In this document: in pieces, positions 1 through 50,275 of the stretch | How positions within the stretch are numbered: position 1 is the stretch's first letter | Layout: every line of letters begins with the position of its first letter | Assembly (NCBI GenBank): GCA_013822345.1 | Contig: PNKH01000032.1 | Span: 643 to 64,642, forward strand | Direction: 5' to 3' | DNA from: Isosphaera sp. | GTDB lineage: Bacteria > Planctomycetota > Planctomycetia > Gemmatales > Gemmataceae | DNA length: 64,000 nt | The notes under the pieces: model-generated | What the model was told of the DNA's origin: nothing | Seen by the model: the letters and a program-made list of their open reading frames with translations, nothing else | Database searches by the model: none | Program-made: the position numbers and the translations under genes

Positions 1-1
1 G

Positions 2-1351
2 GTGACCGGGTCGCGGCACCTGGTCCGGGCCGGCGGCCGGGCGGTGCTGCTCGATTGCGGGCTGTTCCAGGGGCCGAAGCCGCTCCGTGAGCGGAACCGG
101 GAGCACTTCCCGTTCGCCCCCCGCTCGCTCGACGCGGTGGTCCTCAGCCACGCCCACCTGGACCACTCCGGGGCGTTGCCACTATTGGTCAAGGCCGGGT
201 TTCGGGGGCCGGTGTTCTGTACCCCGGGGACGGCCGACCTGCTCGGCCCGCTCCTGCGGGACGCCGCGCACCTCCAGGAGGAGGAGGCCGCCCACGCCAA
301 CCGGCACGGGTACTCGAAGCACCGGCCGGCCCTGCCGCTGTTCACCGCCGCCGACGCCGAGGCCGTCTTCCCGCTCCTCCGCCGACAGCCTTACGGTGAA
401 TCGTTCCCGGTAGCCCCGGGGTTCGCAGCCACCCTCCGGCGGGCCGGACACATCCTCGGCTCGGCGTCGGTCGAACTGCGGGTCGATGGGACACACCCGG
501 TCACCCTGGCCTTCTCCGGCGACCTGGGCCGGCGGGGCCACCCGATCCTGCGGGCGGCGGACCCCGTGCCGGCGGCCGACGTGGTCTTGGTCGAATCGAC
601 CTACGGGGACCGCACCCACCCGCCCGACCCGTCCAGCGAAGTGGCGCGGGTGATCCGGGAGGCGGTCGAGCGAGGCGGCGCGGTGCTGGTGCCGGCGTTC
701 GCCGTCGGCCGGACCCAGGAACTGATCTGGATGCTCCGGAAGCTGGAGGACGCGGGGGCGATCCCGCCGGTCCCGGTCTACATCGACACCCCGATGGGGA
801 TCGACGTGACCGACCTGTTCTGCCGGCACCCGGAGGACCACACGCTGGACATGGCCGAACTGATGGACGCCGGCCGGTGCCCGCTCTGCTGCCGGCAGTA
901 CCACCTGACCCGGACCCCGGCCGAGTCGAAGGCGCTGAACGACCGGACCGGGCCGCTGGTGATCGTTGCCGGGAGCGGGATGGTGACGGGCGGGCGAATC
1001 CTCCACCACATGCGGCGGCGGCTTCCGGACCTGCGGACGACGGTGCTGCTGGTCGGGTATCAGGCCGAAGGAACGCGTGGGCGGGCCCTCCAGTACGGGG
1101 CCGACGCGGTAACAATCTTTGGGGAACGAGTTCCCGTCCGGGCGAAGGTGGAGACGGTCCACGGGCTGTCCGGGCACGCGGACCGGGACGACCTCCTCGC
1201 CTGGATGGGCGGGTTCTCGCGCCCCCCGCAGGTGGTCTGCGCGGTTCACGGGGAGCCCGGCCCGGCGCGCGGCCTGGCCGAGGCGGTGCGGACCCGATTC
1301 GGTTGGGACGTCCGGGTCGCGGCGGACGGGGAGACAGTGCCCCTGTCGTGA
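2..1351 (+). CDS. MBL-fold metallo-hydrolase, beta-CASP/RNA-specificity type (5' end probably outside window)
   Basis: LDCGLFQG, SHAHLDHSG, GHILGS, FSGDLG, ESTYGDR, PAFAVGRTQE, LSGHAD and VHGE motifs. Confidence 0.9.
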   Translation: MTGSRHLVRAGGRAVLLDCGLFQGPKPLRERNREHFPFAPRSLDAVVLSHAHLDHSGALPLLVKAGFRGPVFCTPGTADLLGPLLRDAAHLQEEEAAHANRHGYSKHRPALPLFTAADAEAVFPLLRRQPYGESFPVAPGFAATLRRAGHILGSASVELRVDGTHPVTLAFSGDLGRRGHPILRAADPVPAADVVLVESTYGDRTHPPDPSSEVARVIREAVERGGAVLVPAFAVGRTQELIWMLRKLEDAGAIPPVPVYIDTPMGIDVTDLFCRHPEDHTLDMAELMDAGRCPLCCRQYHLTRTPAESKALNDRTGPLVIVAGSGMVTGGRILHHMRRRLPDLRTTVLLVGYQAEGTRGRALQYGADAVTIFGERVPVRAKVETVHGLSGHADRDDLLAWMGGFSRPPQVVCAVHGEPGPARGLAEAVRTRFGWDVRVAADGETVPLS

Positions 1352-1439
1352 GGAACCCGTGGCGGGTGAGGCGGCACGCGGTTCGATACGCCCCCTCCCG
1401 AACGAACATCCGGGGCCGATACGGGCGGAGACGTTGACC

Positions 1440-3323
1440 ATGACGGCGATCACGAACGACCCGGTCTGCGGCATGCCGGTCCCCGGCGGCGGGGCCTTCT
1501 CCGCCGAGTACCTCGGGCGGCGGTTCGCGTTCTGCTCCGAGTTCTGCCGGGACGCCTTCCTCGCGACCCCCGAGGTCTACGCCGGGGCCGCGGCTCCCAC
1601 CGCCGGCCGGGCCGACGCCCCCCGACGGGTCGCGTACTTCTCGATGGAGGTGGCCGTCGATCCGGGCATGCCGACCTACAGCGGCGGCCTGGGGGTGCTG
1701 GCCGGGGACACCCTGAAGTCCGCGGCCGACCTCGGGCTGCCCGTCCTCGCCGTCTCGCTCCTGAACGCGAAGGGGTACTTCGAGCAGACCCTGGACCCAT
1801 CGGGCAACCAACAGGAGCGGCCGTCGGTCTGGAACCCCGCCAAGTTCATCCGCCCGCTCCCCGGCCAGGTGAAGGCCGACGCCGAGCGGCCGGTCAACCC
1901 CGAGGTGGGGGTGACCATCGAGGGGCGGACGGTCAGGGTTCGCGGCTGGCAGTACGACGTGGTTGGGGCTACGGGCTTCGTCGTCCCCCTGATCCTGCTC
2001 GACACCGACTTGCCCGGGAACGACCCCCGCGACCGGGAGTTGACCGCTCACTTGTACGGCGGGGACGACCGCTACCGGCTGGCACAGGAGGTCATCCTGG
2101 GCGTCGGCGGCGTTCGCATGCTTCGGGCGCTCGGGCACACCTCCATCAGCCGGTTCCACATGAATGAGGGGCACGCCGCGCTCCTCGTCCTGGAGTTGCT
2201 CGGGACCGTGCCGGTCGAGCCGGGGCCGGATTGGAACTTCCACGGGACCCGGGCGGAGTGCGTGTTCACCACCCACACGCCGGTCCCGGCCGGGCACGAC
2301 TCCTTTCCCTACGACCTCGTCGACCGCGTCCTGGGCGTACCGCTGCCCGAGCCGGTGGTCCGGATGCTCGGCGGTGCCGACCGGCTCGACATGACCCACC
2401 TGGGGATCAACATGAGCCGTTACGTCAACGGGGTCGCCAAGCGGCACGCCGAGGTGTCCCGCGAGATGTTCCCGGGCCAGCCGATCGGCGCGATCACCAA
2501 CGGGGTCCACTCCCGGACCTGGACCTGCGACGGCTTCAAGGAACTGTACGACCGGCACATCCCGGGGTGGGGGAACGATCCGGCCGCCCTCCGCTCGGCC
2601 GTGGGCATCCCGAAGCCGGAGGTTTGGGAGGCCCACGCCCGCGCCAAGGAACGGCTGATCGACGAGGTGCGGGGACGGACCGGTGTGACGCTGGCTCCGG
2701 ATGCGTTCACGATCGGGTTCGCCCGCAGGGCGACCGCGTACAAGCGGGCCGACCTGGTCTTCCGCGACCCCGAGCGGCTGGCCGCAATCGCCCGGGAGGT
2801 CGGCCCCATCCAGTTCGTCTTCGCGGGGAAGGCCCACCCAAGGGACGAGGGGGGGAAGGAGGAGATTCGCCGGGTCTTCGCGGCGGCGGACCGGCTCCGG
2901 GACCGGGTTCCGGTCGTGTACCTGGAGAACTACGACCTGGCGCTCGCCGGTCTGTTGACGGCGGGTGCGGACGTGTGGCTGAACACCCCGCGGCGGCCGC
3001 TGGAGGCGTCCGGCACGTCGGGGATGAAGGCGGCCCACAACGGGGTGCCGAGCCTGAGCACCCTCGACGGCTGGTGGGCCGAGGGGCACGTCGAGGGCGT
3101 GACCGGGTGGTCGATCGGCCCCGCGGGCACGGACCCGAACCGGGACGCCGACGCCCAGGACGCGGAGGACCTCTACCGAAAGCTCCGCGAGGTCGTCGTG
3201 CCGCTCTACCATCGTGACCGCGATGGGTGGATCGGGGTGATGCGGCACGCGATAGCGCTGAACGCCTCGTTCTTCAACACCCACCGGATGGTCCAGCAGT
3301 ACGCCGCCAACGCCTACGTGTAG
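1440..3323 (+). CDS. glgP: Alpha-glucan phosphorylase with N-terminal YHS domain
   Basis: N-terminal DPVCGM...FAFCSEFC (YHS), then YFSME, YSGGLGVLAGD, HMNEGH, FTTHTPVPAGHD, ITNGVH, GFARRATAYKR, EASGTSGMKA, DGWW. Start moved to ATG 1440. Confidence 0.9.
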   Translation: MTAITNDPVCGMPVPGGGAFSAEYLGRRFAFCSEFCRDAFLATPEVYAGAAAPTAGRADAPRRVAYFSMEVAVDPGMPTYSGGLGVLAGDTLKSAADLGLPVLAVSLLNAKGYFEQTLDPSGNQQERPSVWNPAKFIRPLPGQVKADAERPVNPEVGVTIEGRTVRVRGWQYDVVGATGFVVPLILLDTDLPGNDPRDRELTAHLYGGDDRYRLAQEVILGVGGVRMLRALGHTSISRFHMNEGHAALLVLELLGTVPVEPGPDWNFHGTRAECVFTTHTPVPAGHDSFPYDLVDRVLGVPLPEPVVRMLGGADRLDMTHLGINMSRYVNGVAKRHAEVSREMFPGQPIGAITNGVHSRTWTCDGFKELYDRHIPGWGNDPAALRSAVGIPKPEVWEAHARAKERLIDEVRGRTGVTLAPDAFTIGFARRATAYKRADLVFRDPERLAAIAREVGPIQFVFAGKAHPRDEGGKEEIRRVFAAADRLRDRVPVVYLENYDLALAGLLTAGADVWLNTPRRPLEASGTSGMKAAHNGVPSLSTLDGWWAEGHVEGVTGWSIGPAGTDPNRDADAQDAEDLYRKLREVVVPLYHRDRDGWIGVMRHAIALNASFFNTHRMVQQYAANAYV

Positions 3324-5405: not shown

Positions 5406-5903
5406 ATGGACCTCTTCGCTCACAGCAACACGGGCTCGCCCTCCGGCGGACTGTTCCCGCCGTGGGAGGCACACCCGGCCACGGTCCACTTCCCGATCGC
5501 GTTCCTCGTCGGGGCGGTCGCGCTCGATCTGTACGCCTGGTGGCGGGGGCGGGCGGACCTCGCGCGGGTGGCGACCGGGCTCATGGCGGCGGGTGTGCTC
5601 ACCGGGGTCGTGGCGGCCGCGACCGGGGCGGTGGCGTTCTTCACCGTGCCCGCGCACACCCGCGAGGCCCACCGCCTCATGTACTGGCACCTCGGGCTGA
5701 TGGCCGGCGTTCTGACTCTGTTCACCGGGGTGGTTGTCGCCCGTCGGCGCGACGAGACGCCGGCTGTGTGGGTGCGCGTCGCCGGGCTGTTCGGGGTTGC
5801 GGTGCTGCTGGTCGGGGCCTACCTCGGCGGCAGCCTGGTCTACCGCGGCGGAGCCGGGGTCGATCCCGCGATCCTCGCCCCGGAGGTGCGGCACGGGCAT
5901 TAA
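5406..5903 (+). CDS. DUF2231-like membrane protein
   Basis: HPATVHFPIA motif, conserved His in MYWHLG, four hydrophobic segments, YLGGSLVY. Confidence 0.75.
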   Translation: MDLFAHSNTGSPSGGLFPPWEAHPATVHFPIAFLVGAVALDLYAWWRGRADLARVATGLMAAGVLTGVVAAATGAVAFFTVPAHTREAHRLMYWHLGLMAGVLTLFTGVVVARRRDETPAVWVRVAGLFGVAVLLVGAYLGGSLVYRGGAGVDPAILAPEVRHGH

Positions 5904-6083
5904 CACGCCGGCGGGGTCGGTTCATCCGATCACGGCCGGGTTGTACCGTCTCTCGGGCCGGGCGCTTCGCGGGGTGCGGGCCGAACCCCCAATCGGGCGG
6001 CACTGCCCGCCGTGGCGTCGGGTAGAATTCGGTGGTGCGGGGAACGGCTGGCGGGCGCGTGACCCTAACTGAAGAGGTGCCTC

Positions 6084-7664
6084 ATGAGTGCGGAATCCGA
6101 TCGTCGCAACTTCCTCCTCGGAGGCTCGGCCCTCGCCGGCGGGCTCCTCGCCGGGTCGGCCGGGGCGCAGGACAAGCCGCCCGCGAAGGACGATCACGCC
6201 GGGCACGACCGCGGCAAGCTGGTGGCCGGCCTGCGGAAGCCGGGCGACCCGCCCGTCCCGGTCGAGTGCCCCGACGTGCCGAAGCTGAAGTGGGAGATGA
6301 AGGACGGGGTGAAGGAATTCCACCTCCGCGCCCAGCACCTGAAGCGGGAGTTCCTCCCCGACCAGTGGTTCGACGTCTGGGGGTACAACGGCAGCATGCC
6401 CGGGCCGACGATCGAGGTCACCGAGGGGGACAAGGTCCGGATCGTCGTCCACAACGAGCTGCCCGAGCCGACCATTCTGCACTGGCACGGCCTGGAAGTC
6501 CCGGTCGCGATGGACGGCGTGGAGTTCGTGACCCAGGACCCGATCGAGCCCGGCAAATCGTTCGCCTACGAGTTCACCCTCCACCAGAACGGCACGTTCG
6601 CCTACCACACCCACGTGGCCATGCAGCAGGGCATGGGGATGGTGGGCCTGTTCATCGTCCACCCCAAGTCGGCCCACTCCCCGCCGGTGGACCGCGACTT
6701 CGGCCTCGTCATCCAGGAGTGGGCCATCCTGCCGGGGTCCACGATCCACAACACCATGTCGATGGAGTTCAACCTCTTCACGCTCAACGGCCGGGCGGCC
6801 CCGTACATCACGCCCCTGGTCATCAAGCAGGGCGAGCGGGTGCGCATCCGCTTCTTCAACTTCAGCGCCATCGACCACCACCCGATGCACCTGCACGGGC
6901 TGACCTTCTGGATCACCGGCACGGAGGCCGGGCGCATCCCGGACACCGCCTGGATCCCCAGCAACAACGTCCTGGTGGCGGTGGCCCAGGCCCGCGACAT
7001 CGAGTTCGTGGCCAACAACCCGGGTGACTGGGTGTTCCACTGCCACATGTTCCACCACATGATGAACTTCATGTCCTCGATGGCCGGCCCGATGGTGTCC
7101 CACATGAAGGGGCCGCCGGCCGGCACCGCGATGGGCACGAGCATGGGGATGCTCACCCGCGGGCCGGCCCTGAACCCGGAGTTCGGGGCCGCGCTCGGCC
7201 GGGGGACGGGGGAGAACACCGGGACCGACCGGGCGGTCGGGAACGGCCCCCAGCTCGGACAACCCGGAATGCCGGCCATGCCCGGGATGCCCGGCGGCCA
7301 GCCGAAGGGGGGCGGCCACGAGGGTCACGGCGGGCCGGCCAAGCTGGTGCCCGGCTTCCCGCAGAGCATGGGCGAGATGGTGATGTACACCCCGGCGCAG
7401 ATCAAGAAGCTCAACAAGCCCGAGACCCGCGGCATGCGGAACGGGTGGTTCGGGGGGGTCGAGGGGCTGATGACCGTGGTCCGGGTGCTGCCGCCGGACC
7501 TGTACGACAAGGTGGTCTCCGGGAAGGGCGAGGTGGCCCCGGGGGCCAGCGTCCCGGGAGCCACTCCCGGCAAGGTGGTCGGCGGGGGCCACGAGGGGCA
7601 CGACATGCCGAAGAAGGACTCACCGTCCAAGAAGGACGAACACGAGGGTCACAAGAAGGAGTGA
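6084..7664 (+). CDS. Tat-exported two-domain multicopper oxidase with Met/His/Gly-rich C-terminus
   Basis: RRNFL twin-arginine signal; HWHG, YHTH, HPMHLHG and HCHMFHH copper motifs. Confidence 0.9.
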   Translation: MSAESDRRNFLLGGSALAGGLLAGSAGAQDKPPAKDDHAGHDRGKLVAGLRKPGDPPVPVECPDVPKLKWEMKDGVKEFHLRAQHLKREFLPDQWFDVWGYNGSMPGPTIEVTEGDKVRIVVHNELPEPTILHWHGLEVPVAMDGVEFVTQDPIEPGKSFAYEFTLHQNGTFAYHTHVAMQQGMGMVGLFIVHPKSAHSPPVDRDFGLVIQEWAILPGSTIHNTMSMEFNLFTLNGRAAPYITPLVIKQGERVRIRFFNFSAIDHHPMHLHGLTFWITGTEAGRIPDTAWIPSNNVLVAVAQARDIEFVANNPGDWVFHCHMFHHMMNFMSSMAGPMVSHMKGPPAGTAMGTSMGMLTRGPALNPEFGAALGRGTGENTGTDRAVGNGPQLGQPGMPAMPGMPGGQPKGGGHEGHGGPAKLVPGFPQSMGEMVMYTPAQIKKLNKPETRGMRNGWFGGVEGLMTVVRVLPPDLYDKVVSGKGEVAPGASVPGATPGKVVGGGHEGHDMPKKDSPSKKDEHEGHKKE

Positions 7665-11033: not shown

Positions 11034-11240
11034 CCCGTTCCCCGCGGTCGCGTCCCACTGCCCACGGGGCGTGACGTGTTCCGTCGTGACATTGTCGGCC
11101 GTTCCGGCCTGACCCCCGTCGCGCACGTTCCCCACGATCCACCTCCGACGCGGCCCGCCGCTGGACGGGGTGGGACAGATTCCGGTTTCAACCCAGCGGG
11201 TCCGGGTGCGTTCGTCCGGCCCGCACAACAGGAGACTCAC

Positions 11241-36991: not shown

Positions 36992-37281
36992 ATGTCCTCT
37001 CGTTGTCGTTAGTCGGGTTTGCGGCGTCACGCCGATGGCGTGCTGCTGCAAACCCTTACCGACTCGGTCCCGGCGGGGGTGAGCGGTCAAGGTGGAGGCC
37101 GGGGGAGGGGGATCACCCGGGCTACACAAGCGCAGCGCGGAAGCCCGGGGATACCCCCGGCTCGACCTGGACGGCGAGGGGGCCGCAGGTCCCCTCCTCA
37201 AAGAGGTGAGTACCGCCGTGGAGCGGGGACGGCCGGCGGCGAGTGAGAGAAGGCGGTCGTCAGGCGGGGCGAGTTCTGGAG

Positions 37282-38229: not shown

Positions 38230-38339
38230 CTTATTCCCCTCGGTCCCGGCCATTATCCGCGTTCGCACACCCGTTTTCGACCCTTCTCTGCCGGCAGCGG
38301 TTGGTGCGGGCATTTCGTGAGCAGGGGGCTTGGCGCTGT

Positions 38340-38362
38340 TTGGATTACAATATAGAATCCAA
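38340..38362. promoter_or_regulatory. AT-rich 7-9-7 inverted repeat in a divergent promoter
   Basis: ttggatt-acaatatag-aatccaa. Confidence 0.55.
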
Positions 38363-38422
38363 TTAGCACCCGCCACCCCAACTCGCTCACAAGTCGTTCG
38401 CCTGCCTCCCACGGAGAATCCG

Positions 38423-40035: not shown

Positions 40036-40048
40036 GGGGGAAGTAATC

Positions 40049-41209: not shown

Positions 41210-41294
41210 CGTTTTCGCAGCCCTACTGGTTGCCCGGCGCTCGCCGGGCGGGGCGGCGAAGACGGATTGATGGTTCGAGTTCGGGAGACTTCCC

Positions 41295-42332
41295 ATGAAG
41301 AACGCAGTGTTCTTCGCGGCGGCCGTAACGGCCGCCACCCTGGCGGCCGCGGCCGCCAACGCGGCCGGGCCGGACGCGGCCCCGCCCGACCCGAAGGTGC
41401 GGATGGCCCAGATCGCCAAGGAGGAGGTCGAGTACGCCGAGAAGGCGCTCGCCAAGACCGAGGCGGACATCCTCAAGGAGGTGGACGAGGCCGTCGCCGG
41501 CATGGCCCTGGACAAGCCGGGGGCCGAGAAGCTGGCGGTCGACGGCATGCGTCGGGTGGCGGCCCGCGGTCGCGCCCTGGCCAAGAAGCTGGTCGAGGGG
41601 CACGCCGCCTACGCGGCCAGCGCCAAGGCGCTCAAGGGCGTCTACGCCCGCAGCCCGGCCGTGTTCCGGGACGCGGCCAAGACGTTCCGCGGGTACGCCG
41701 CCGAGGAGGAGTTCGAGGACATCCGCAAGGACTACCTCACCTGCGCCGAGACCTGGGAGTCGCTGGCCAAGGTGATGGAGAAGCGGGTCGAGGCGATCGC
41801 GGAGGAGGAGAAGGCGATCGCCGAGACGATGCGGATGGTCGAGCGGACCGGGGTGTTCCTGGAGCGGTTCGAGGCGCACCTGGCGAGCTATCCGGACCTG
41901 TCGGCCGGGGAGGACCGGCAGAAGTTCCTCGACCAGCTCCGGCGGTACGTGCAGACGTACGAGGGGCTGCGCGGGAGCCTGGGCAAGTTCAACGAGCAGC
42001 TCAAGAAGCAGGCCCTGGCCCCGGACCTCCGGCCCAAGGCCGGGGACGCGGCCGTCGCCAGCGGCCGGCCGGACGCAGCCCGGCAGCCGGCCGTCAACCC
42101 GGCGGTGAAGCCCGCGACCCCGGCCGAGCCGGCGGCCCCCGTCAATCACACCCCGGTGACGCCGGCGACAACCGCCGTCGCGGGGCAGGCTGACGGCACC
42201 GTGAGGATCCCGGTCGGCGAGTTCGTGGTTATCGAGAACGGCCGGGCCTACTTGGTCCGGATGTCGGTCCTCGCCCGCCCGGTGCCCGCCGCCGGGACTG
42301 GGAGCACCAGCCTGGCCATGACAGGCCGTTAG
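41295..42332 (+). CDS. Secreted coiled-coil protein
   Basis: Ala-rich signal peptide; long Lys/Glu/Ala helical region; Pro/Ala linker; short C-terminal beta domain. Confidence 0.7.
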   Translation: MKNAVFFAAAVTAATLAAAAANAAGPDAAPPDPKVRMAQIAKEEVEYAEKALAKTEADILKEVDEAVAGMALDKPGAEKLAVDGMRRVAARGRALAKKLVEGHAAYAASAKALKGVYARSPAVFRDAAKTFRGYAAEEEFEDIRKDYLTCAETWESLAKVMEKRVEAIAEEEKAIAETMRMVERTGVFLERFEAHLASYPDLSAGEDRQKFLDQLRRYVQTYEGLRGSLGKFNEQLKKQALAPDLRPKAGDAAVASGRPDAARQPAVNPAVKPATPAEPAAPVNHTPVTPATTAVAGQADGTVRIPVGEFVVIENGRAYLVRMSVLARPVPAAGTGSTSLAMTGR

Positions 42333-42341: not shown

Positions 42342-42371
42342 GCCGGCCCGGGTATCGAACCCCGGGCCGGC
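42342..42371. terminator. 11-bp perfect hairpin after the kinase operon (terminator-like or oriT-associated)
   Basis: gccggcccggg-tatcgaac-cccgggccggc; no clear U-tract. Confidence 0.4.
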
Positions 42372-42466
42372 TCCCCTCCCGCCCGCGCGGGCCGGTTGAG
42401 TAGGCCCGCGGGGCGTGGTAGGGATCGCCCTCGAACCGCAATCAAACCCCGTTTTTCCGTGGTGCC

Positions 42467-42763
42467 ATGTCCACCCGTTCCAAACCGGTCGGCTTCCGCC
42501 TGTCCACCCCCGCCGCCAAGCGGCTTGCGGCCGCGGCCGCCCGGCACGGGCTGTCCCCGGGCACCTATGCCCGCCGGCTGGTGCTGGCGGGCCTGGACGA
42601 CGACGCCGGCCGGCAGGCGCTGGACGAACTGGCCGCCGTCCGGGAGCAGTTGGCCCGGCTTCGGGCCGACCTGGTCCGGGTCGCCGTGGCCCTCTTGACC
42701 GACGCCGGCAAGGCCGAACTGGACGATGCCGAGGCGTGGGCCCGCGATCACCTTCGGGGATGA
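42467..42763 (+). CDS. MobC-like relaxosome accessory protein
   Basis: KPVGFRL...KRLAAAAARHGLSPGTYARRLV RHH pattern followed by a coiled coil; directly upstream of the relaxase. Confidence 0.65.
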   Translation: MSTRSKPVGFRLSTPAAKRLAAAAARHGLSPGTYARRLVLAGLDDDAGRQALDELAAVREQLARLRADLVRVAVALLTDAGKAELDDAEAWARDHLRG

Positions 42764-42787
42764 CCTGTCATGTTGTGGGTGTTCGTC

Positions 42788-45298
42788 ATGCTGTCGATCT
42801 CCGCGATGGCCAACGGCCAGGAGAACTACTACCTGTCGCTCGCCCGGGAGGACTACTACCTCGCCGGCGGCGAGCCGCCCGGCCAGTGGGCCGGCGGCGG
42901 GGCCGCCCTCCTGCGGCTGGCGGGTGACGTCCGCCCCGACCAACTGCGGCCACTGTTCGCGGGGTTCGCCCCGCCCGGCCTCACGCCGGCCGTAGTCGGG
43001 TCGGACCGCACCAAGCTGGTGGCCAACGCCGGCGCGGACGACCGTCAAGCCGGGTGGGACCTGACGTTCTCCGCCCCGAAGAGCGTGAGCGTCTACTGGG
43101 CCCAGGCCGACGCGGACAGGCGGGTCGCCGTCCAAGCCGCGCAGGCGGCCGCGGTCCGGGCCGCCCTCCGCTACCTGGACGAGGAGTGTGCCTGGACCCG
43201 CCGGGGCAAGGGCGGGGTCGAGGTCGAGCGGTGCGGGCTGGTGACAGCCCTGTTCGAGCACGGCACGTCCCGCGCGCAGGACCCCAACCTGCACACCCAC
43301 GTCCTGGTCCTCAACGTCGGCGTCCGGGCCGACGGCACCACCGGCACCGTGCTGTCCCGGCCGTTCTACGAGGCCAAGATGGCGGCCGGGGCCGTCTACC
43401 GGGCGGAACTCGCCCACCAACTTCAACTCCGGCTCGGGCTTGAGTGCCGGGCGGAGAAGACGTGGTTCGAGCTGGCGAACGTCCCCCAGGCCGCCCTCGA
43501 CGCCTTCTCCACCCGCCGGGCGGAGATCGAGGCGTCGTTGAACGGGTCCGGCCGGTCCGGGCCGCGGGCCGCCGAGTACGCCGCCCTCGACACCCGAACG
43601 GCCAAGGAGTGCCGCCCCCGTGCCGACCTGTTCCACGACTGGCTGGCCGCCGGCCGGAACGTCGGGTTCGGTCCCGACCAGGCCCGCGACCTCGAAGGCC
43701 GTGTCCGCCCGGATGCCGACCCGGTGGCCCGGCTCCGGGCCGTCCTCGCCGAATCGGCCGTGGCACTGGCGGATAGCCTCGGCCATTTCACCGAGCGGGC
43801 GTTGTTGCGGCGGACGGCCGAGGCCGTCCAGACCGCCGGGGTGCCCGTCGCGGCCGTCCGGGCGGCGGTCAAGGATTACCTGCACCACTCCCCGGACCTG
43901 GTCCGGCTCGGCGACAAGGACCGGACGCCCCACTACACCACGGCCGACGTGTACGCCGTCGAGCAGGGTCTGCTCAAGCTCGCCCAGGCCGGGCACGGCA
44001 ACCGCCACCACGACCTCCCGAGCCGGACCGTCGAGGAAACGCGGGCCGCGTTCCCGCGGCTGAACGCCGAGCAGACGGGTGCCCTGCTGCACCTCGCCCG
44101 GGGCGGGGGCACGATCCGGGTCGTCGGCGGGCTGGCCGGAACCGGCAAGACGACACTTTTGGACGCGGCCCGCGACGCCTGGGAGCGGGACGGCCGCACG
44201 GTCGTCGGCGCGGCCCTGGCCGGCAAGGCCGCTCAAGGACTCCAGGACGGGGCGAAGATCGCCAGTGAGACGATTCACCGCCAACTGATGGACTTGGATT
44301 CCGGACGGCTGACGCTCGACGCCAAGTCCGTACTGGTGGTGGACGAGGCGGGGATGGTCGGCACCCGGCTGCTCGCCCGGCTGGCCGAACACGCCCGTAA
44401 GGCCGACGCCCTGCTGGTCCTGGTCGGCGACCACCGACAACTTCAGAGCATCGACGCCGGCGGGGCGTTCAAGGCCCTCGGCGACCGGCTCGGCCGGGCC
44501 GAGTTGACCCAGATCACCCGCCAGACGGAGCGGTGGGCGAGGGACGCCGTCCGCCAGGTGGCCGAGGGGGATGCGGCGGCGGCCCTCCGGAAGTTCGCCG
44601 ACCGCGGGCTACTGACGGTTTGTGACGACCGGTTTGCCGCAGCCCGGCAGATCGCCGCCGACTGGGGGCGGGCCGGGGCGGTGGCACCGGAGCGTCACCT
44701 GGTCTTCACGGGCGAGAACCGGGACGCCGCTCTCCTCAACCGGCTGTGTCAGGCCGAGCGGGCGGCTCGGGGGTTTCTTCACGGCCCCGGAGTCGATGTC
44801 GGTGGCGACCATTATCGGGCCGGCGACCGGGTGCTGTTCACCCGCAACTCGAAGCTGGTCGGCGTGAAGAACGGCAGCCTCGGCACCGTGACCGGGGTCA
44901 ACCCGGCGACCCAGGCCCTCCGCGTCCGACTGGATGGCGGGGCGACCGTCCACGTCCCACTCTCCGAGTACGCCCACCTGCGGCTCGGCTACGCGGTGAC
45001 CACGCACAAGGGCCAGGGGGTGACGGTGGACCACGCCTACGTGCTGGCCGGCGGGGCCATGACCGACCGCGAACTGTCTTACGTCCAACTCTCCCGGGCC
45101 CGCCACACCACCCGCGTCTACGTGGACCGAGCCGAGGCCGGGACGGACCTCGCCGACCTGGCCCGGGCCATGACCAAGTCGCGGCAGCACACCCTCGCCC
45201 ACGATGCCGTCCCAACCCAGGCTCCCCAGCCGAAGGCGGCCCCGACTCCCGATCCCGATCCGAAACCCGCCCCCCTTCGCCCGGAGGTATCCCGATGA
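42788..45298 (+). CDS. mobF: MOBF (TrwC-type) relaxase fused to RecD-like helicase
   Basis: NYYLSLAREDYY, DLTFSAPKSVS, HGTSRAQDPNLHTH; GLAGTGKT, VDEAGM, GDHRQL, GYAVTTHKGQG. Confidence 0.93.
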   Translation: MLSISAMANGQENYYLSLAREDYYLAGGEPPGQWAGGGAALLRLAGDVRPDQLRPLFAGFAPPGLTPAVVGSDRTKLVANAGADDRQAGWDLTFSAPKSVSVYWAQADADRRVAVQAAQAAAVRAALRYLDEECAWTRRGKGGVEVERCGLVTALFEHGTSRAQDPNLHTHVLVLNVGVRADGTTGTVLSRPFYEAKMAAGAVYRAELAHQLQLRLGLECRAEKTWFELANVPQAALDAFSTRRAEIEASLNGSGRSGPRAAEYAALDTRTAKECRPRADLFHDWLAAGRNVGFGPDQARDLEGRVRPDADPVARLRAVLAESAVALADSLGHFTERALLRRTAEAVQTAGVPVAAVRAAVKDYLHHSPDLVRLGDKDRTPHYTTADVYAVEQGLLKLAQAGHGNRHHDLPSRTVEETRAAFPRLNAEQTGALLHLARGGGTIRVVGGLAGTGKTTLLDAARDAWERDGRTVVGAALAGKAAQGLQDGAKIASETIHRQLMDLDSGRLTLDAKSVLVVDEAGMVGTRLLARLAEHARKADALLVLVGDHRQLQSIDAGGAFKALGDRLGRAELTQITRQTERWARDAVRQVAEGDAAAALRKFADRGLLTVCDDRFAAARQIAADWGRAGAVAPERHLVFTGENRDAALLNRLCQAERAARGFLHGPGVDVGGDHYRAGDRVLFTRNSKLVGVKNGSLGTVTGVNPATQALRVRLDGGATVHVPLSEYAHLRLGYAVTTHKGQGVTVDHAYVLAGGAMTDRELSYVQLSRARHTTRVYVDRAEAGTDLADLARAMTKSRQHTLAHDAVPTQAPQPKAAPTPDPDPKPAPLRPEVSR

Positions 45299-47277
45299 CA
45301 TCCCGCTGGACCCCGGTCCTCGCCCCGCCCGCGCTGCTCCTGATCGCCGCCGCCTGCGGGCTGGCCGGCTACCGGCTGACCGCCGCCATCGACTACCCGA
45401 TCTGGGCGATGGTTGTAGCCGGGGCGATCGCCGGGTACGCCGCCTGGACGGTCGGCGACGGCCGCTACTCCGACCTCCGCCAGCGGCAGCGGCAGGGCGG
45501 CCCGCCGTCGCTCGACGCCCTGGCCGGGCTGCTCGCCCGACTCGAACTGCTGTTCGCCTTGCAACTGCTGACGGCGGCCGCCGTGTACCGGCTCGCGGCC
45601 GGCGCCTGGCCGGACGGCCCGCTGGCCGCCTTCTTCCCGGACGGGCGGCCGGACCGCGGCACCGAACTGGCCGACCGGCTGGTCCGGGAGATGGGTCGGC
45701 TGGTTCCCGCCCTGCTCGCGGTCGGGGCGGTACAGCACGTGGCAAGCCGGTTGCTGTTCCCCGACCACCCGTTCGAGCCGTTCGCCCGCGGCCGCCAACT
45801 GTCCACCGCCGGGGCGGCCCGCCGGAAGGCCGACCGCGCCCGGCCGCCCGACGACCCCGGGCTGCCGTGGGGGGCGTGCCGGCTGCCGTCCGCGGCCGCC
45901 GTCCTGCACTGGCTGGTGGTCGGCACCACCGGGTCGGGCAAGACGCTCACCCTGCGGCTGCTCATGCAGGACGCCCTGCGGCTCATCACCCCCGGCTCGG
46001 ACGCCCGGGCTCTGGTGTACGACGCCAAGCGGGACGCCCTCCCGCTCCTGGCCGGGATGGGGCTGTCCTGCCCGGTCAAGACCCTCAACCCGCTGGACGA
46101 GCGGGGGGTGGCCTGGGCGATCGCCCGGGACTGCACCGCCCCGGCCACCGCCGTCCAGCTCGCCGAGGTGTTCGTCCCGGACCAGGACCGGGGCGACAAC
46201 GGCTTCTTCGCCAAGGCCGTCCGCGACCTCTTGTCCGGGGTGTTCACCGCCCTCGACCTGACGGCCCCGCGGGCCTGGACCCTGCGCGACGTGGTCCTGG
46301 CCATGACCTCGCCCCGGCTCCGGGAGCTGCTGGACCGGTTCGACGAAACCCGCGACCGGCTCCGGTACTTCGCCGACGACCGGACCCTGGCCAACATCAT
46401 GGCCACCGTCAGCACCGAACTGGCCCCATACCGGGCCGTCGCCGCCGCCTGGGACCGTGCCCCGAACGCCATCAGCCTGGCAGACTGGGTGCGGGGCGAG
46501 TTCGTCCTGGTCCTCGGCAACGACGAGTCCGTCCGGGCCCCGCTCGACGCCATCAACCGGGCGATCGTCCAGCGGGCCACCGAACTCCTCCTCAACCTGC
46601 CGGAGTCCTCGACCCGCCGGGTCTGGCTGTTCCTCGACGAGGTCCGGGAGGCCGGTCGGCTGGACGGCCTGCGGTCGCTGCTCAACAAGGGGCGGTCGAA
46701 GGGGGCGTGCGTGGTCCTCGGGTGCCAAGCCATTGAGGGGCTGTGGGCCGAGTACGGCAGGGACGAGGCGAACGAGATCGCTGGGGAGTGCAACCACGCC
46801 GCCTTCCTGCGGGTCGAGAGCCCGGAGACGGCCCGGTGGATGGCCGACCGGGTGGGCGAGTTCGAGCGGCGGGAGGTGAAGCCGGGCCAGGCCGGCGGGG
46901 CCGGCCAGACCTCGCTTAGTGAGGACACGGCCCGGCGGCCGGTGGTGCTGCCGTCGGAGTTCCAGGACCTGCCGGTGACCGACCGGGCCAACGGGCTGAC
47001 CGGCTACTACCTGAGCCCGGTCACCGGGGTCTACCGGCACACCACGCCGTCCGCCGACCTGACCGCCCGGTTGCTGCCGCCGGACGCCAACACGCCCGAC
47101 CACGTCCCGCGGCCGGCCGACGCCCAGTACCTGCGACCGTGGGACGCCGACGACCTACGCCGGCTCGGCTTCGCGGCGGAGCCGCCGCCGGTCCCGCCGC
47201 CCCCCGCCCCGACGCCCCAGCCCGACCCGAAACCGCGGCTGAAGGTCGTCAAGCGACAGACCACGGACCGGACGTAA
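45295..47277 (+). CDS. Type IV coupling protein (TrwB/TraD-like)
   Basis: N-terminal TMs; GTTGSGKT, VYDAK, NPLDERG..W, LFLDE, KGRSKG.CVVLG.Q; ATGA overlap with the relaxase stop. Confidence 0.9.
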   Translation: MTSRWTPVLAPPALLLIAAACGLAGYRLTAAIDYPIWAMVVAGAIAGYAAWTVGDGRYSDLRQRQRQGGPPSLDALAGLLARLELLFALQLLTAAAVYRLAAGAWPDGPLAAFFPDGRPDRGTELADRLVREMGRLVPALLAVGAVQHVASRLLFPDHPFEPFARGRQLSTAGAARRKADRARPPDDPGLPWGACRLPSAAAVLHWLVVGTTGSGKTLTLRLLMQDALRLITPGSDARALVYDAKRDALPLLAGMGLSCPVKTLNPLDERGVAWAIARDCTAPATAVQLAEVFVPDQDRGDNGFFAKAVRDLLSGVFTALDLTAPRAWTLRDVVLAMTSPRLRELLDRFDETRDRLRYFADDRTLANIMATVSTELAPYRAVAAAWDRAPNAISLADWVRGEFVLVLGNDESVRAPLDAINRAIVQRATELLLNLPESSTRRVWLFLDEVREAGRLDGLRSLLNKGRSKGACVVLGCQAIEGLWAEYGRDEANEIAGECNHAAFLRVESPETARWMADRVGEFERREVKPGQAGGAGQTSLSEDTARRPVVLPSEFQDLPVTDRANGLTGYYLSPVTGVYRHTTPSADLTARLLPPDANTPDHVPRPADAQYLRPWDADDLRRLGFAAEPPPVPPPPAPTPQPDPKPRLKVVKRQTTDRT

Positions 47278-47375
47278 TCGACCCCGCCCGTTAGACCGGG
47301 CAAGTGGTCCGGCCGACGAATGCCCACAGTTCGGCGACTGGCGGCCCCGGTCGTGACCTTCGACGAGGACCGACG

Positions 47376-48161
47376 ATGTCGAGAAAAACCAGCCTCCCGC
47401 CCGTAGCGCGACGGCTGACGGCGACCTGTGAGACGATGACCTTCGTCCTCGGGGGGGTGCGGGTGACGGTGACCGCCAGCCGCCGCTCGGATCCCGCCGT
47501 CATCGTTCGGTCGTTTCGAGCGATCACCGAATTCGTGGACCCCGACCAGCCGCGGTTCGGGAACGGCCGTGACGTCCGTTTCGACAGCCTTCCTCATTCC
47601 GGGCTGACGATCCAGCGGCGCGAGGGTCCATACCTGAGCGGCCGTGACATCCTTCGCGCCCTGAACGCGGCCGCCGACCGGGTGGAAACCGAGAGGTTTC
47701 CCGAACCGCCGCGTCCGCGGACGTTCCCACCCGCCGTGCAAACCGACCCCATCCGGTTCGGCGCGGAAACGTTGCACTGGCGGGAGTTCGAGCAGCGGGT
47801 GGTGGCGCAAAGTGACGTGTCCCTCGCTTGGGACGACGCGCTGGCCGACGGCTTCAACCGCTACTTCTGCGACCGGGTGGCGGGGTGCCCGCCCAAGCCG
47901 ATTGTCTTCGACTTCCGCCCGGGCACCCGGTCGCTCCTCGGCGTCCACTGCCGCGACCGCATCCGGCTGCGGGCCGACATCCCCGACGACGAAAAGTGGC
48001 GGACGCTGTTCCACGAACTCGCCCACTACCGCGTGCGGCATCACCGCCGCACCTTCGTCCGCGAACTCGCACTCGTGTACCGCACCTGGATCGCCTTCCG
48101 ATCCGCCCCCGAGGCCGAGTCCTCCCCGAAGCACCCGACCGACAACCCCACACCACGGTGA
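47376..48161 (+). CDS. HExxH zinc-metallopeptidase-like protein (YgjP/SprT-like C-terminus)
   Basis: TLFHELAHYRVRHHRRTF. Confidence 0.55.
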   Translation: MSRKTSLPPVARRLTATCETMTFVLGGVRVTVTASRRSDPAVIVRSFRAITEFVDPDQPRFGNGRDVRFDSLPHSGLTIQRREGPYLSGRDILRALNAAADRVETERFPEPPRPRTFPPAVQTDPIRFGAETLHWREFEQRVVAQSDVSLAWDDALADGFNRYFCDRVAGCPPKPIVFDFRPGTRSLLGVHCRDRIRLRADIPDDEKWRTLFHELAHYRVRHHRRTFVRELALVYRTWIAFRSAPEAESSPKHPTDNPTPR

Positions 48162-48164: not shown

Positions 48165-48605
48165 ATGGAGATCATTCACCAACGCCCGGCGGGGTGGCCG
48201 ACCGTGGTCGGAGGCGGTGGCAACGCCCTCCCGTGCGGCACGCGGGCGGTGCCGGCACGGCCGCCTGCCGCCCCCTTGAGTGCCGCCGTCCGACCCAGGC
48301 CGAACAAAGCGAGCGCGGCGGCCCCGCCACAAACCGGTGACTGTTTCGTGGTCGTCAACTGCCGCGGGCAATGCTGGGACGGGGCGACGTGGGTTGACCG
48401 CTGGGACAAGGCGCTCCAGTTCCGCCGCCCGTCTTCTGCTTACGAGCTGTGCGACAGCGCCGCCCGCGAGGCGGAGCGGATGACCGGCGTGGCCGGCATG
48501 GTGAGCTACATCCCGCCCGGCACGCCGCCGGTGTCCCTGGCCCCCTTCCCCGACCTATCTCAAGTCGACTTGCGGGACTTCGCCCTCAAGCCCGAGGTGT
48601 GCTGA
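48165..48605 (+). CDS. Hypothetical protein convergent on the integrase
   Basis: The C-terminal half (CFVVVNCRGQCWDG...) reads as coding; start uncertain. Confidence 0.45.
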   Translation: MEIIHQRPAGWPTVVGGGGNALPCGTRAVPARPPAAPLSAAVRPRPNKASAAAPPQTGDCFVVVNCRGQCWDGATWVDRWDKALQFRRPSSAYELCDSAAREAERMTGVAGMVSYIPPGTPPVSLAPFPDLSQVDLRDFALKPEVC

Positions 48606-50173
48606 ATCGCCAGCTTCTTGATCGTCCCGTTCCGGAGGTGAATCTGAACCTGGGCGACGCGGCTCATGTGGGTCACGCGGGTGATGTGGACCCAGATTTC
48701 GCTGACCACGCTACGGACCTTCGCCTTCAGCTTCCGCCGCACCTCTTTCAGTTCGTCGCCCCTCACCGATCCGAGCAAGCCGAGTAACGACTGCACTTCG
48801 CCGAGGTTGACCGCCTTGCAACTCGCGGCGTCGGCCTTCAACTCCTCCAGGCGGCGGACCGTCTCCCGCTTGGTCTTGTGCAACGTCTTGAGCAGCCCGA
48901 CGTAGACTTCCGGTGTTTCTTCTTCCGGGTCCGACGCCTTCTGCTCGGCGTCCTGGATGCGGTGGTCGAGCACGACCAACTTGCCGGTGAGGTCGGCGAT
49001 CTCTGCCTCACGCTCGTCACCCTCCTCTTCTCCTCCGAGGACATCGGCGGCTGTCAGTTCGGAGAGGGCCTGGAGGACGGCCTGCTCGAATGGCGGGTAG
49101 GGGAACGACAACCCTTTTCCCCGGCGCGTCGATCCGTTTGCCGTCGCCCCGGAAGTGAGGTAGCGGTACGGCCGCGTTTCCCCGCCGGCGGTGGTCGCCT
49201 GCCGGAACGTGTGGACCGACATCGTGGTCCGGTCCTCGGCGTGGAAGACGATCCCGGTGAACAGGTTCGTCTCGAACTCGCCCGGCCTTCCCATCACGCG
49301 GAACCTCGCCTTCATCCCGGCCTGGACCTGGAAGAACAGTTCCTCACTGATGACCGGCGGGAAATAGTTCTTGATCGGCTGGCCACAATCGACCCGCTTG
49401 TTCCCCTCTTCCCGCATCTGGGGTTGGAACTCTCCGAACGTCGCCCGGTTGGACAGGATCTGGAGGACGTAGGAATCACGCCACCGCCCGGAATCGCCGA
49501 ACGGCGGGTGCTTCTTCGGGTTGGCGACCAAGTAGTTCAGGATGCGTTGTACCCCCATGCCCTCGGCACTCAACCGGAAGATTTCGCGGACGGTCGCCGC
49601 CCGGTCGGGGATGAGCTTGTAGCCCTTCTCGGTCAGTTCCAACCAGCGAGGGGCCATCCTGGTCATCGGCAGCCCTTGTGTCGCCGCCCGCTCCTTCTTC
49701 TTGGCCCAGGCGTCTTTCAACCGGAACGACTTCGTGGCCGACTCCTCGTGGGCACGGCTCATGTAGATGAGCGGTTCCAGAAGGGCGGCGATGTCGTTGA
49801 TCGAGTCCTGCGTGTACGTCCGCCGCGGTTCGCGGGTGACTATCGAGACCCCGCTGTTTAGGATGGAAATGAAGAGCTGGAGCGCCGCGCCGACCTTGTT
49901 CCGCGAGAGCCGGTCGATGCTCTCAATGATCAGGACCGATCCCCTCAGCACCCGTCCGGTGCGGATCGCCTCCAGGAACTCGGCGAGGGCACCGACCTTG
50001 GCGTTGTTGCCCCGAAAGGCCGAGACGCCGAGATCGTTCAGTGTCAAGGTCTCGTCGAGCACCCAACCGTTCTCGCGGCAGACTTCGACGGCGAACTCGG
50101 CCTGGCGGCGGAACGATTCGCCCCTCTGCTGCTTTTTGGACGAGAATCGGATGTAGGAGAACGCTCGTGACAT
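48560..50173 (-). CDS. Large serine recombinase (integrase)
   Basis: YIRFSS catalytic motif, GESFRRQ, GVSAF, IESIDRLSR, recombinase domain, long coiled coil. Confidence 0.93.
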   Translation of the reverse strand: MSRAFSYIRFSSKKQQRGESFRRQAEFAVEVCRENGWVLDETLTLNDLGVSAFRGNNAKVGALAEFLEAIRTGRVLRGSVLIIESIDRLSRNKVGAALQLFISILNSGVSIVTREPRRTYTQDSINDIAALLEPLIYMSRAHEESATKSFRLKDAWAKKKERAATQGLPMTRMAPRWLELTEKGYKLIPDRAATVREIFRLSAEGMGVQRILNYLVANPKKHPPFGDSGRWRDSYVLQILSNRATFGEFQPQMREEGNKRVDCGQPIKNYFPPVISEELFFQVQAGMKARFRVMGRPGEFETNLFTGIVFHAEDRTTMSVHTFRQATTAGGETRPYRYLTSGATANGSTRRGKGLSFPYPPFEQAVLQALSELTAADVLGGEEEGDEREAEIADLTGKLVVLDHRIQDAEQKASDPEEETPEVYVGLLKTLHKTKRETVRRLEELKADAASCKAVNLGEVQSLLGLLGSVRGDELKEVRRKLKAKVRSVVSEIWVHITRVTHMSRVAQVQIHLRNGTIKKLAIQHTSGLRAKSRKST

Positions 50174-50238
50174 GGGAGCTTCCGTGCTTTTGCGGCGAAC
50201 GACCATGACGGCACCTCGACCCGTGGGAAGTTTATGGT

Positions 50239-50275
50239 ATTATATGCAAAGTGGCCAGCCGTTCGACATCGCGAC
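50239..50275. other. Putative att junction of the island
   Basis: AT-rich element sequence switches at about 50259 into ccgttcgacatcgcgacgtgc (PFDIATC of YgiQ). Confidence 0.65.

Follow-up and report, generated by a model that had tools for sequence, protein, structure and literature searches.

Actinomycete AICEs such as pSAM2, and ICEs of the SXT/R391 or ICEclc type, combine an integrase with Rep and/or Par functions that stabilize the excised form, and they encode their own transfer machinery, either an FtsK-like TraB or a full T4SS. IMEs with a relaxase and a type IV coupling protein (T4CP) have been described in streptococci (PMC5357655); they carry their own integrase, a relaxase, an oriT and sometimes a coupling protein, and are inserted inside a gene by a serine recombinase, but they have no mating pore and therefore depend on a helper conjugative element. 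In Planctomycetes, chromosomal MOBF relaxases and T4CP without a mating pore are already known from a 2024 preprint, 'Specificities and commonalities of the Planctomycetes plasmidome' (bioRxiv 10.1101/2024.01.22.576637), which reports MOBF relaxases in 21 of 83 chromosomes (29 in all), some MPF proteins in 38 chromosomes and a complete MPF in none.

The window analyzed here is a 64,000-nt stretch of a contig from Isosphaera sp., and its positions 1-50258 are what can be seen of an integrated element that extends leftward past window position 1. This copper/heavy-metal element of more than 50 kb interrupts ygiQ of a Gemmataceae-type planctomycete. Like an IME, it has in its visible 50 kb its own integration module and a relaxase with a candidate oriT, and no MPF. 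We consider it probable that the element is integrative, mobilizable and plasmid-like, and that positions 1-50258 are its right-hand 50 kb. It belongs to a family that is widespread and barely described so far. A previous sequence-only reading had proposed a plasmid/IME hybrid, and the MOBF relaxase, the T4CP, the candidate oriT and the rep/repeat/par module described below agree with that proposal, although its wording of a "full plasmid replicon" went too far. That reading also stressed that planctomycete conjugative elements are poorly described; the novelty is lower than it implied, because the preprint had already reported chromosomal MOBF and T4CP loci without a complete MPF. Neither tRNA genes nor Rfam RNA families were found in the window.

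The right end of the element could be placed exactly. Homology to YgiQ starts at position 50259, corresponding to codon 550 of an intact YgiQ of about 685 aa, and 10 intact ygiQ genes part from the window precisely there, confirming the proposed boundary at 50258. The displaced 3′ end of ygiQ (50259-50642, + strand; residues 550 to the end, DUF3362) is host DNA outside the element, and the 5′ half of the gene is absent from the window. A genome scan with the N-terminal 549 aa of YgiQ gave 80 matches, all 80 of which were intact ygiQ genes; these provided attB, and no attL was present among them. When metagenomes were scanned with the first gene of the window, matches did not exceed 63% identity. 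The junction MQSxx/PFD is common to at least 39 independent protein clusters, and a literature search gave no earlier report of integration into ygiQ. The many short DUF3362 proteins could have meant that ygiQ is naturally split in this clade, but we rejected this reading: Gemmataceae, Limnoglobus roseus among them, commonly have an intact gene, and each short protein either shows the MQS junction contributed by the element or is truncated by the end of its contig.

The integrase that had been noticed at one end of the island is a large serine recombinase of 537 aa (48560-50173, − strand) that abuts the break at 50258/50259, the position expected of an ICE integrase. Its N-terminus is MSRAFSYIRFSSKKQ, and it has the Resolvase (PF00239) and Recombinase (PF07508) domains of this class. 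The ATG at 50173 is conserved as the start, with an alternative at 50206. An identical arrangement of integrase and ygiQ was observed in L001, L002 and L171, and the integrases of L001, L002 and L085/86 share 94% identity with it, compared with 60-70% for the host flanks; the recurrence of this junction and integrase in other hosts bears out a serine-integrase element in ygiQ. A relative with a 59%-identical integrase occupies the same ygiQ codon. The attR site (50207-50290, + strand) was mapped to within a few nt. Its element arm has ATGCAAAGT at the end, followed by six variable nt (50244-50258), and its host arm starts with CCGTTCGAC at 50259. We considered the in-frame ATG of ATGCAAAGT as evidence for expression of the C-terminal fragment, but this argument was weakened because the 59% integrase relative carries CAGCAAAGT; judged from the sequence, the motif may more simply be an integrase-binding arm. 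On the inner side of the integrase lie a variable ORF of 285 aa (47304-48161, + strand) and a small ORF (48165-48605, + strand) that stands beside the integrase in every case and is a candidate for the recombination directionality factor. Its counterparts at the integrases of L001, L002 and L085-87 share 64-74% identity with it, that of L171 shares 47%, and family searches with it returned no match.

The DNA transfer and processing operon occupies 42467-47277 (+ strand). Its first gene (42467-42763, + strand), called mobC-like in the sequence-only reading, is indeed an accessory gene, but its product is better described as a NikA-like RHH protein of 98 aa, an identification for which the PF21983 match is weak (E = 1.8e-4, below the cut-off); the gene holds the same position in all relatives. 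It is followed by a MOBF relaxase-helicase of the TrwC type (42770-45298, + strand; E = 5e-76), as predicted, which matches PF08751 and AAA_30 and whose nearest plasmid matches are annotated as MobF. The relaxase motifs YY...YY and HTSRAQDPNLHTH are present, as are NYYLSLAREDYY, HGTSRAQDPNLHTH and the Walker A motif GLAGTGKTT. The anticipated coupling protein is of the TrwB type (45295-47277, + strand; TrwB_AAD_bind, E = 5.5e-56); it has a Walker A motif and, at its N-terminus, two TM helices. Catalytic motifs are intact in the relaxase, the T4CP and the integrase, and thus the relaxase and coupling protein expected of an ICE are both there. Alignment of five elements revealed a candidate oriT (42343-42427, + strand), which begins with a GC-rich inverted repeat (42343-42370) and continues with conserved GTTGAGTAG, a short palindrome and GTGGTAGGGATCG (42395-42427). 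The letters GTTG..GTG.TA.GGATCG of this block are invariant among the five elements, whose relaxases are 56-82% identical.

A mating pore is missing from the visible 50 kb, where the complete MPF with a VirB4-family ATPase that defines an ICE was not found. No called gene of the window matched a T4SS Pfam family, no ORF without assignment in the window is large enough for a VirB4-size ATPase, and the backbone contains neither such an ATPase nor a polytopic membrane protein, in agreement with the earlier statement that VirB4/VirB6-like genes do not occur in the 50 kb. VirB4 and polytopic pore genes were likewise absent from 10-kb views around four relatives. We know of no helper T4SS in these planctomycete hosts.

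The backbone at 29.4-50.2 kb (21 kb) is also conserved on five or more further planctomycete contigs, with synteny in L083/L088, L084, L085, L089 and L172, and all of its ORFs are intact. At its left side a candidate replication initiator, "rep", of 461 aa (29409-30794, − strand) is predicted to have a dual winged-helix RepE/RctB-like fold. No Pfam, NCBIfam, PHROG or PDB sequence family matched it (the PDB profile search was empty); RPA (PF10134) and Rep3 (PF01051) are among the families it does not match, and Rep3_N reached just E = 0.04 in 2 of 35 homologues. The AF2 model (mean pLDDT 76.6) was matched by Foldseek to domains 2-3 of RctB (E = 6.5e-9, probability 1.0, TM 0.60 on the target) and to RepE54 (RepE; E = 4e-3), so that it is by predicted structure that the protein appears as a tandem winged-helix initiator. 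The 197 homologues all lack names and are located on planctomycete contigs. Directly upstream of rep there are three iteron-like 19-mers (30850-30932; 32-33 nt spacing) with the consensus GTTCGTGCTTTCGGTCCCG, and the same three are found at the same place in L088, L089 and L090.

The 19-mers and the adjacent genes form a putative partition operon with repeats (30850-32035, − strand). ParA (31259-32035, − strand; NF041546, E = 7e-34) is followed by a gene for a putative centromere-binding partner of 105 aa (30949-31266, − strand), in line with the parA operon of the sequence-only reading; the partner is conserved in position and has no family match, and the 19-mers lie downstream of it. The trio of ParA, a 102-aa gene and rep is kept in relatives. 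Alternatively, the 19-mers could be a partition centromere or an operator instead of iterons. The upstream repeats claimed for rep are thus real and conserved, whereas rep itself belongs to no sequence family and is recognized by its predicted fold. "Full plasmid replicon" was overstated because the initiator is backed by this fold and the repeats, and tblastn against 72,556 catalogued plasmids (PLSDB) gave no match for it. The evidence supports the element carrying a plasmid-like rep/par module with putative iterons.

Between the partition operon and the transfer operon, a block of conserved genes (32472-35678, − strand), whose proteins are 84-89% identical in L083 and L084, encodes a YhcG/DUF1016 PDDEXK nuclease (32472-33644, −), a 118-aa protein (34028-34384, −) and a DUF932-like protein (34470-35678, −). 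A small ORF is also present in this block. Upstream of the DUF932-like gene a conserved, strongly structured non-coding region (35603-36020) contains hairpins at 35618-35646 and 35694-35737 and has a DNA fold z-score of −4.85. Compared with L083 and L084, its nucleotide identity is 71-72% overall and far higher in the first ~260 columns, and no coding signal was detected in it. It is possibly a single-strand promoter, a single-strand initiation site or a regulatory leader. Iterons were also sought upstream of the DUF932-like gene (35.7-36.6 kb), where there are hairpins and no repeat family. The block at 36656-38271 contains genes for a DUF7249 protein (about 36656-37120, −) and a conserved protein of ~300 aa (37282 to about 38170, −). 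The ParB that had been reported is present at 38330-39304 (+), and is followed by a vWA protein with a DxSxS motif (39340-40035, +), a membrane-anchored Ser/Thr-kinase-like protein (40019-41209, +) and a coiled-coil protein with a signal peptide (41295-42332, +). This block of ParB, vWA, kinase and secreted protein is linked to TrwC and T4CP in L083, L084, L085 and L172.

Variable cargo occupies 1-29408, and after rep the relatives carry other cargo. Pfam and NCBIfam matches identified a beta-CASP RNase, a YHS-fused alpha-glucan phosphorylase, an M50 peptidase, DUF2231, a multicopper oxidase, a CopZ/MerP-like protein with two HMA domains, a TolC-like OEP, His-rich proteins, an RND adaptor, CusA/CzcA, a TPR-methyltransferase, GH15, WD40 and a HAMP-PP2C phosphatase. 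The metal set among them consists of CusA/CzcA, the RND adaptor, the TolC-like protein, the multicopper oxidase, the CopZ/MerP-like HMA protein and the YHS domain. Positions 1-50396 were found entire at ~99% identity in two biofilter metagenomes (runs X2 and X4), the pieces being linked by even depth and not by long contigs. Identity was 99.8% in the backbone, 98.8-99.4% in the cargo, with 98.8-99.8% as the range for positions 1-29408, and ~90% in the ygiQ piece, and the chromosomal flank was absent from both runs at ≥90% identity. Therefore the unit moves together with its metal cargo, as had been suggested, and its left end is beyond the window; the whole visible unit, metal cargo included, is shown to be nearly identical in another host background. 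Neither an excised (attP) nor an empty-site (attB) form at 50258 was seen in the Logan contigs of four runs, which drop rare variants, so that rare excised forms are invisible there. In the source run the depth of the island contig equals that of the flank (about 10x). This ratio of 1 gives no sign of free replication, and the multicopy free form that a comparison of read depths was meant to reveal is not indicated in this run.

These features suggest the following course of events. The large serine recombinase has inserted the element at codon 550 of ygiQ; the 5′ part of the gene is expected to end ...GACTTCATCCCCGCG, joined to an arm that would resemble ATGCAAAGT in reverse complement. Excision of a circle would be the work of the integrase together with the small ORF beside it (48165-48605), which would act as directionality factor. 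The RepE/RctB-like initiator would bind the three 19-bp repeats and, with ParA and the 105-aa partner, allow the circle to replicate and segregate until re-integration or transfer. For transfer, the NikA-like protein and TrwC may nick the conserved site upstream of nikA, and the T4CP may pass the relaxase-bound single strand to a pore for which the element has no gene, whether a helper T4SS or some other apparatus. Once in the recipient, the element would be placed into ygiQ by its integrase.

Other readings have to be weighed against this one. The element could be a complete ICE with its MPF genes to the left of window position 1, as it exceeds 50 kb, its left end is out of view and the 67,397-bp source contig holds only ~3.4 kb more than the window; the MPF proteins that the preprint gives for 38 chromosomes point the same way. 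We regard this as unlikely, since in relatives the backbone stops at rep and the cargo that follows is unrelated and free of T4SS families within 10 kb, VirB4 is again absent from a more distant relative in which TrwC and the T4CP are packed together with the vWA and kinase genes, and the preprint counts no complete MPF in planctomycete chromosomes. At least two elements in tandem at ygiQ, in which a 21-kb IME mobilizes a metal island or remnant in cis, would account for quite different cargo beside the same backbone in relatives, the drops in GC content over 10-13 kb and 20-23 kb, the truncated OEP fragment (22620-23114) and the lower identity of cargo (98.8%) than of backbone (99.8%) in X2/X4. 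However, the window contains neither a second integrase nor a second relaxase, and no att-like remnant of ygiQ lies inside the element; in X2/X4, moreover, all 50 kb are present jointly with even depth. Such a composite is therefore quite unlikely.

Another view concerns the pore itself. That the family is self-transmissible without a classical T4SS, its T4CP docking on a non-canonical or host envelope apparatus and the always linked vWA, membrane-anchored kinase and secreted coiled-coil proteins joining or controlling the route, seems rather improbable to us; if true, it would explain how MOBF and T4CP spread in a phylum without a complete chromosomal MPF. In a related form of this view, these proteins or a host envelope machine would themselves replace the classical T4SS, which we judge very unlikely. 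The vWA-kinase block does stay with TrwC and T4CP down to 50% relaxase identity, lying even between them in L172, and the family clearly spreads while the phylum's chromosomes show no MPF as far as the preprint's counts go; but we know of no precedent, the proteins have one TM helix or a signal peptide only and no pore-like features, and a helper on an unsampled plasmid is simpler. As for an immobile, decaying remnant of an integrated plasmid, the lack of an excision product in the Logan contigs and the depth ratio of 1 would fit, yet the backbone ORFs are all intact, catalytic motifs are kept and near-identical copies occur in a different flank, leaving this reading hardly credible.

The locus represents a concrete and widespread family whose target has been mapped to codon 550 of ygiQ, with at least 39 independent junction clusters, and it provides natural evidence that a metal-resistance unit of more than 50 kb moves between hosts. 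To our knowledge, no planctomycete has yet been shown to conjugate with another. The phylum has few genetic tools, and the serine integrase with attB, the rep-iteron-par module and the oriT/relaxase/T4CP set are candidate phylum-native parts for them. The question becomes a sharp one, as the DNA-processing half is encoded and the pore is not, and the identity of the pore is now directly testable. For drinking-water and biofilter communities, the copper/heavy-metal cargo has applied interest as well.

Compared with known systems, the transfer module resembles the Dtr region of R388/IncW (TrwA-TrwB-TrwC, oriT) in its RHH accessory protein, its TrwC relaxase-helicase with double Tyr and three His, its TrwB-type T4CP and a candidate oriT that lies upstream of the accessory gene and has a hairpin ahead of the putative nic region. 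In contrast to R388, the genes are ordered nikA-trwC-T4CP, a Trw MPF operon is lacking and integration is by a serine recombinase; the relaxase is only ~35% identical to the nearest plasmid relaxases. The replication module is similar to RepE of the F plasmid, RctB of Vibrio chromosome 2 and the RPA Rep of planctomycete plasmids in its predicted tandem winged-helix structure, the direct repeats immediately upstream and the adjacent genes of a putative type I partition system, and differs from them in having no sequence-family membership, only three repeats and no catalogued-plasmid relative. Whereas AICEs, SXT and ICEclc bring their own transfer apparatus, the present element shows only relaxase and T4CP. 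It is set apart from the streptococcal IMEs (PMC5357655) by its size (more than 50 kb versus typically less than 20 kb), by its MOBF TrwC relaxase-helicase, putative plasmid-type initiator/iteron/ParA module and ParB-vWA-kinase block, and by a host phylum without a known helper. The planctomycete chromosomal MOBF and T4CP loci without a complete MPF (bioRxiv 10.1101/2024.01.22.576637) most likely belong to the same class; the accessible text of that study gives counts only, without boundaries, integrase, target site, backbone, replicon or cargo, which for the present element are described here.

To the right of 50.26 kb lie ordinary chromosomal genes, for a sigma-54 activator, enolase, LeuA and ValRS, and neither tRNAs nor Rfam families were found in the window. 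The ORF at 50172-50642 contains DUF3362 alone, the domain found at the C terminus of YgiQ, a radical-SAM protein. An intact 685-aa YgiQ homologue (P0126) aligned to the window from residue 550 onward only, and residues 1-549 had no coding match anywhere in the 64 kb. Comparison with ten intact planctomycete ygiQ sequences (...GACTTCATCCCCGCG|CCGTTCGACATCGC, against ...ATGCAAAGTGGCCAG|CCGTTCGACATCGC in the window) placed the break of homology exactly at 50258/50259, the right-hand end proposed by the sequence-only reading. Between this break and the start of the integrase gene on its left are 34-85 nt, according to which start codon is taken. LeuA and ValRS lie downstream of ygiQ in the window (57743-63384) and inverted and upstream of it in a related MAG (L005 2105-6642), probably a rearrangement. 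Several MAG contigs among L003-L082 with Gemmataceae-like ygiQ and flanks are titled Alcaligenaceae, Kuenenia, Elusimicrobia or Pseudomonadota, titles that suggest mistakes of binning or labelling in public MAGs.

The nearest database relatives of the YgiQ fragment were nearly all short. Among those covering the junction, 39 clusters (and a few variants) open with an element-derived 'MQSxx' before PFD(I/V)ATCMYY, and the remaining 56 have an intact QDFIPA and are merely truncated at contig ends. The element arm ATGCAAAGT (50244-50258) provides an in-frame ATG, so that gene callers predict many 'MQSxxPFD...' mini-YgiQ proteins (P0003-P0203), annotated as DUF3362 or YgiQ family. This ATG could be read as a selected start codon, but the distant relative L171, an IMG/VR contig, carries CAGCAAAGT at this place, which disfavors that reading; this motif is probably an arm that the integrase binds.

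Two contigs, one of 51 kb from an ENA metagenome (L001) and one of 2.3 Mb from assembly GCA_901538445.1 (L002), have a divergent serine recombinase ahead of the YgiQ fragment, with 94% identity to the recombinase of the window. The YgiQ fragments are only 60-69% identical to that of the window and the flanking sigma-54 activator 70%, and an integrase so nearly identical in hosts so diverged shows recent horizontal spread. L171 has a 59%-identical integrase at the same ygiQ codon, with the arm CAGCAAAGT-N6-CCGTTCGAC, and, with integrases of 94% and 59% identity using one site, ygiQ codon 550 serves a broad integrase clade as attB. A small ORF (48165-48605) lies beside the integrase in every case, with 47-74% identity, and is by position only a candidate directionality factor.

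The extent of the element was examined in metagenomes. The sequence-only reading had the element excising and replicating; when read depth was compared in the source run (X1, a drinking-water metagenome), island and flank were equal at ~8-12x, with nothing to indicate a free form in multiple copies. In two biofilter metagenomes (X2 and X4), the backbone at 28.2-48.0 kb was 99.8% identical (35 differences in ~15.6 kb), the cargo at 19.9-28.2 kb ~98.8% and the region 0.27-9.7 kb ~99.4%, with cover at >=97% identity throughout 1-20 kb. The junction-crossing contig is ~10% divergent from ~50224 on and stops at 50396, and 50.45-64 kb had no cover at >=90% identity, only scraps of housekeeping genes at 85-88%. 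It is at the att site that identity falls away. As the island is near-identical and the flank absent at this threshold, the 50-kb unit including its cargo occurs in organisms with a different chromosome; linkage of the pieces is inferred from their even depth (~11x). The left end of the element must lie beyond position 1 of the window. Within 49100-50240, differences from X2 and X4 concentrate in the 5′ half of the integrase and the att arm (~2% divergence, the element otherwise being 99.8% identical), and 50224-50237 is very variable; this cluster points to a patch of recombination or to an arm that evolves fast.

Related contigs were reached through homologues of the relaxase and of the 'rep' ORF. 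Their common order runs, on the left, rep, a 102-aa gene, ParA, (YhcG), two small genes and a DUF932-like gene, all leftward, and, on the right, a ~310-aa gene on the minus strand, ParB, vWA, kinase, a ~345-aa secreted protein, NikA-like, TrwC, T4CP and integrase. The genes listed by the sequence-only reading were all found at 29.4-50.2 kb, and its anatomy of the element was correct. The integrase of L085 is the same serine enzyme as that of the window (48560-50173), whereas L083 (15393-16448) and L084 (15637-16692) have a tyrosine recombinase and, beside it, an HTH_17 protein; homologous backbones end in either enzyme, the integration module having been swapped. Past rep, the cargo differs in every element, with restriction-modification and HNH genes in L088 and an AAA/radical-SAM-like set in L089.

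Genes of the window were called from third-position GC and frame plots, the G+C content of the window being ~70%, and annotated with Pfam, NCBIfam and PHROGs. In the cargo (1-29.4 kb), a beta-CASP RNase gene truncated by the window start is followed by an alpha-glucan phosphorylase (1119-3323; TIGR02094, E 3e-166) whose N-terminal YHS metal-binding domain is an unusual fusion within metal-resistance cargo, and then by an M50 peptidase and a DUF2231 protein. The cargo also encodes a copper-resistance type multicopper oxidase, a CopZ/MerP-like protein with two HMA domains, a TolC-like outer-membrane protein, an RND adaptor and a CusA/CzcA pump. Amid the efflux genes, two His/Asp/Lys-rich proteins (11034-11834, with a tandem repeat at 11355-11482, and 12962-13726) are made of 39-nt tandem repeats (KPGDGKKDDHGDH) and are probably periplasmic metal binders; frame signals were confusing at 11.8-13.3 kb. 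One contig each in X2 and X4 connects 27122 back to 12683 with a 32-nt overlap side, which could reflect a His-codon repeat in common or a cargo rearrangement in those organisms. The right part holds a mixed set: DUF6370, a TPR-methyltransferase, an OEP fragment, GH15, WD40 and a HAMP-PP2C phosphatase. The isolated OEP fragment (22620-23114) matches outer-membrane efflux proteins in their C-terminal part only and looks like a gene remnant, beside a GC dip at 20-23 kb. In Limnoglobus roseus, a GH15 gene (L058 8128-9924) with 41% identity to that of the cargo (23339-25192) lies directly upstream of intact ygiQ, probably by coincidence.

The relaxase carries the MOBF signatures NYYLSLAREDYY and HGTSRAQDPNLHTH and a RecD-like helicase with Walker A, and its best plasmid matches were Methylobacterium MobF proteins (~35% identity). 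In the T4CP, two TM helices lie at the N terminus, and both Walker motifs (A and B) are present. Five elements have in common, upstream of the NikA-like gene, a GC-rich inverted repeat with an invariant GTTG..GTG.TA.GGATCG behind it (window 42395-42427), a layout like that of a MOBF oriT, where a hairpin lies a few nt before nic, and we propose this conserved block (42343-42427) as a candidate oriT. Three genes always stay linked to TrwC and T4CP (window 39340-42332; L083, L084, L085 and L172), those for a vWA protein, a kinase-like protein anchored in the membrane and a coiled-coil protein with a signal peptide. In L172, whose relaxase is 50% identical, DUF932, NikA-like, TrwC, vWA, kinase, two unknowns and T4CP form one block, the three lying between TrwC and T4CP. 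This constant linkage points to a functional tie to transfer, and the set belongs to no described Dtr or MPF set. The non-coding ~410 nt upstream of the DUF932-like gene (35603-36020; L083 2478-2891, L084 2250-2637, L089 ~5690-6100) are more conserved than the adjacent genes and, as single-stranded DNA, form long hairpins (z -4.85) with stems constant and loops variable among elements; this stretch may serve a leading region as its single-strand promoter or initiation site, or may encode a regulatory RNA.

No T4SS families were found in any view of the relatives L083-L085, L088, L089 and L172, and the absence of a visible mating pore was borne out for the visible 50 kb. On that stretch, the element is an integrative mobilizable element that carries plasmid-like maintenance genes, not an ICE by the MPF criterion, the part left of the window being the main caveat. 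The finding is real, and the missing pore is the point that could add weight to it. The mechanism of the sequence-only reading is plausible, though evidenced only in part, with the 50-kb unit and its metal cargo present in another chromosomal background in its favor.

The 'rep' ORF (29409-30794, minus strand) had no sequence-family match and none among catalogued plasmids. Its AlphaFold model, from a 35-sequence alignment, has a confident core (pLDDT 76.6, pTM 0.62), and the significant PDB matches were replication initiators only, namely RctB domains 2-3 (E 6.5e-9 to 8.9e-8) and RepE54 (E ~4e-3). Between a 105-aa gene and rep, a 19-mer occurs in two perfect copies and one degenerate copy at 32-33 nt spacing, and L088 and L089/L090, with initiators that are only 66-70% identical, have three copies of this 19-mer in the corresponding position. 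The predicted fold and the repeats conserved in place support an initiator with putative iterons or operator, beside an operon of ParA and a small partner. The 19-mers may instead be the partition centromere.

In the literature, we found no description of the element family, the ygiQ target or the exchange of serine and tyrosine integrases, nor of an initiator recognized by its fold beside conserved repeats, the constant linkage of vWA and kinase, or natural movement of an element with metal-resistance cargo. The bare observation of MOBF and T4CP without MPF is not new, since 29 MOBF relaxases were counted in 21 of 83 planctomycete chromosomes, often with T4CP alongside and with complete MPF in none (bioRxiv 10.1101/2024.01.22.576637). 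The same study describes planctomycete plasmids with RPA-type Rep, iterons and type I partition, a set that the rep, repeat and ParA module of the element resembles.
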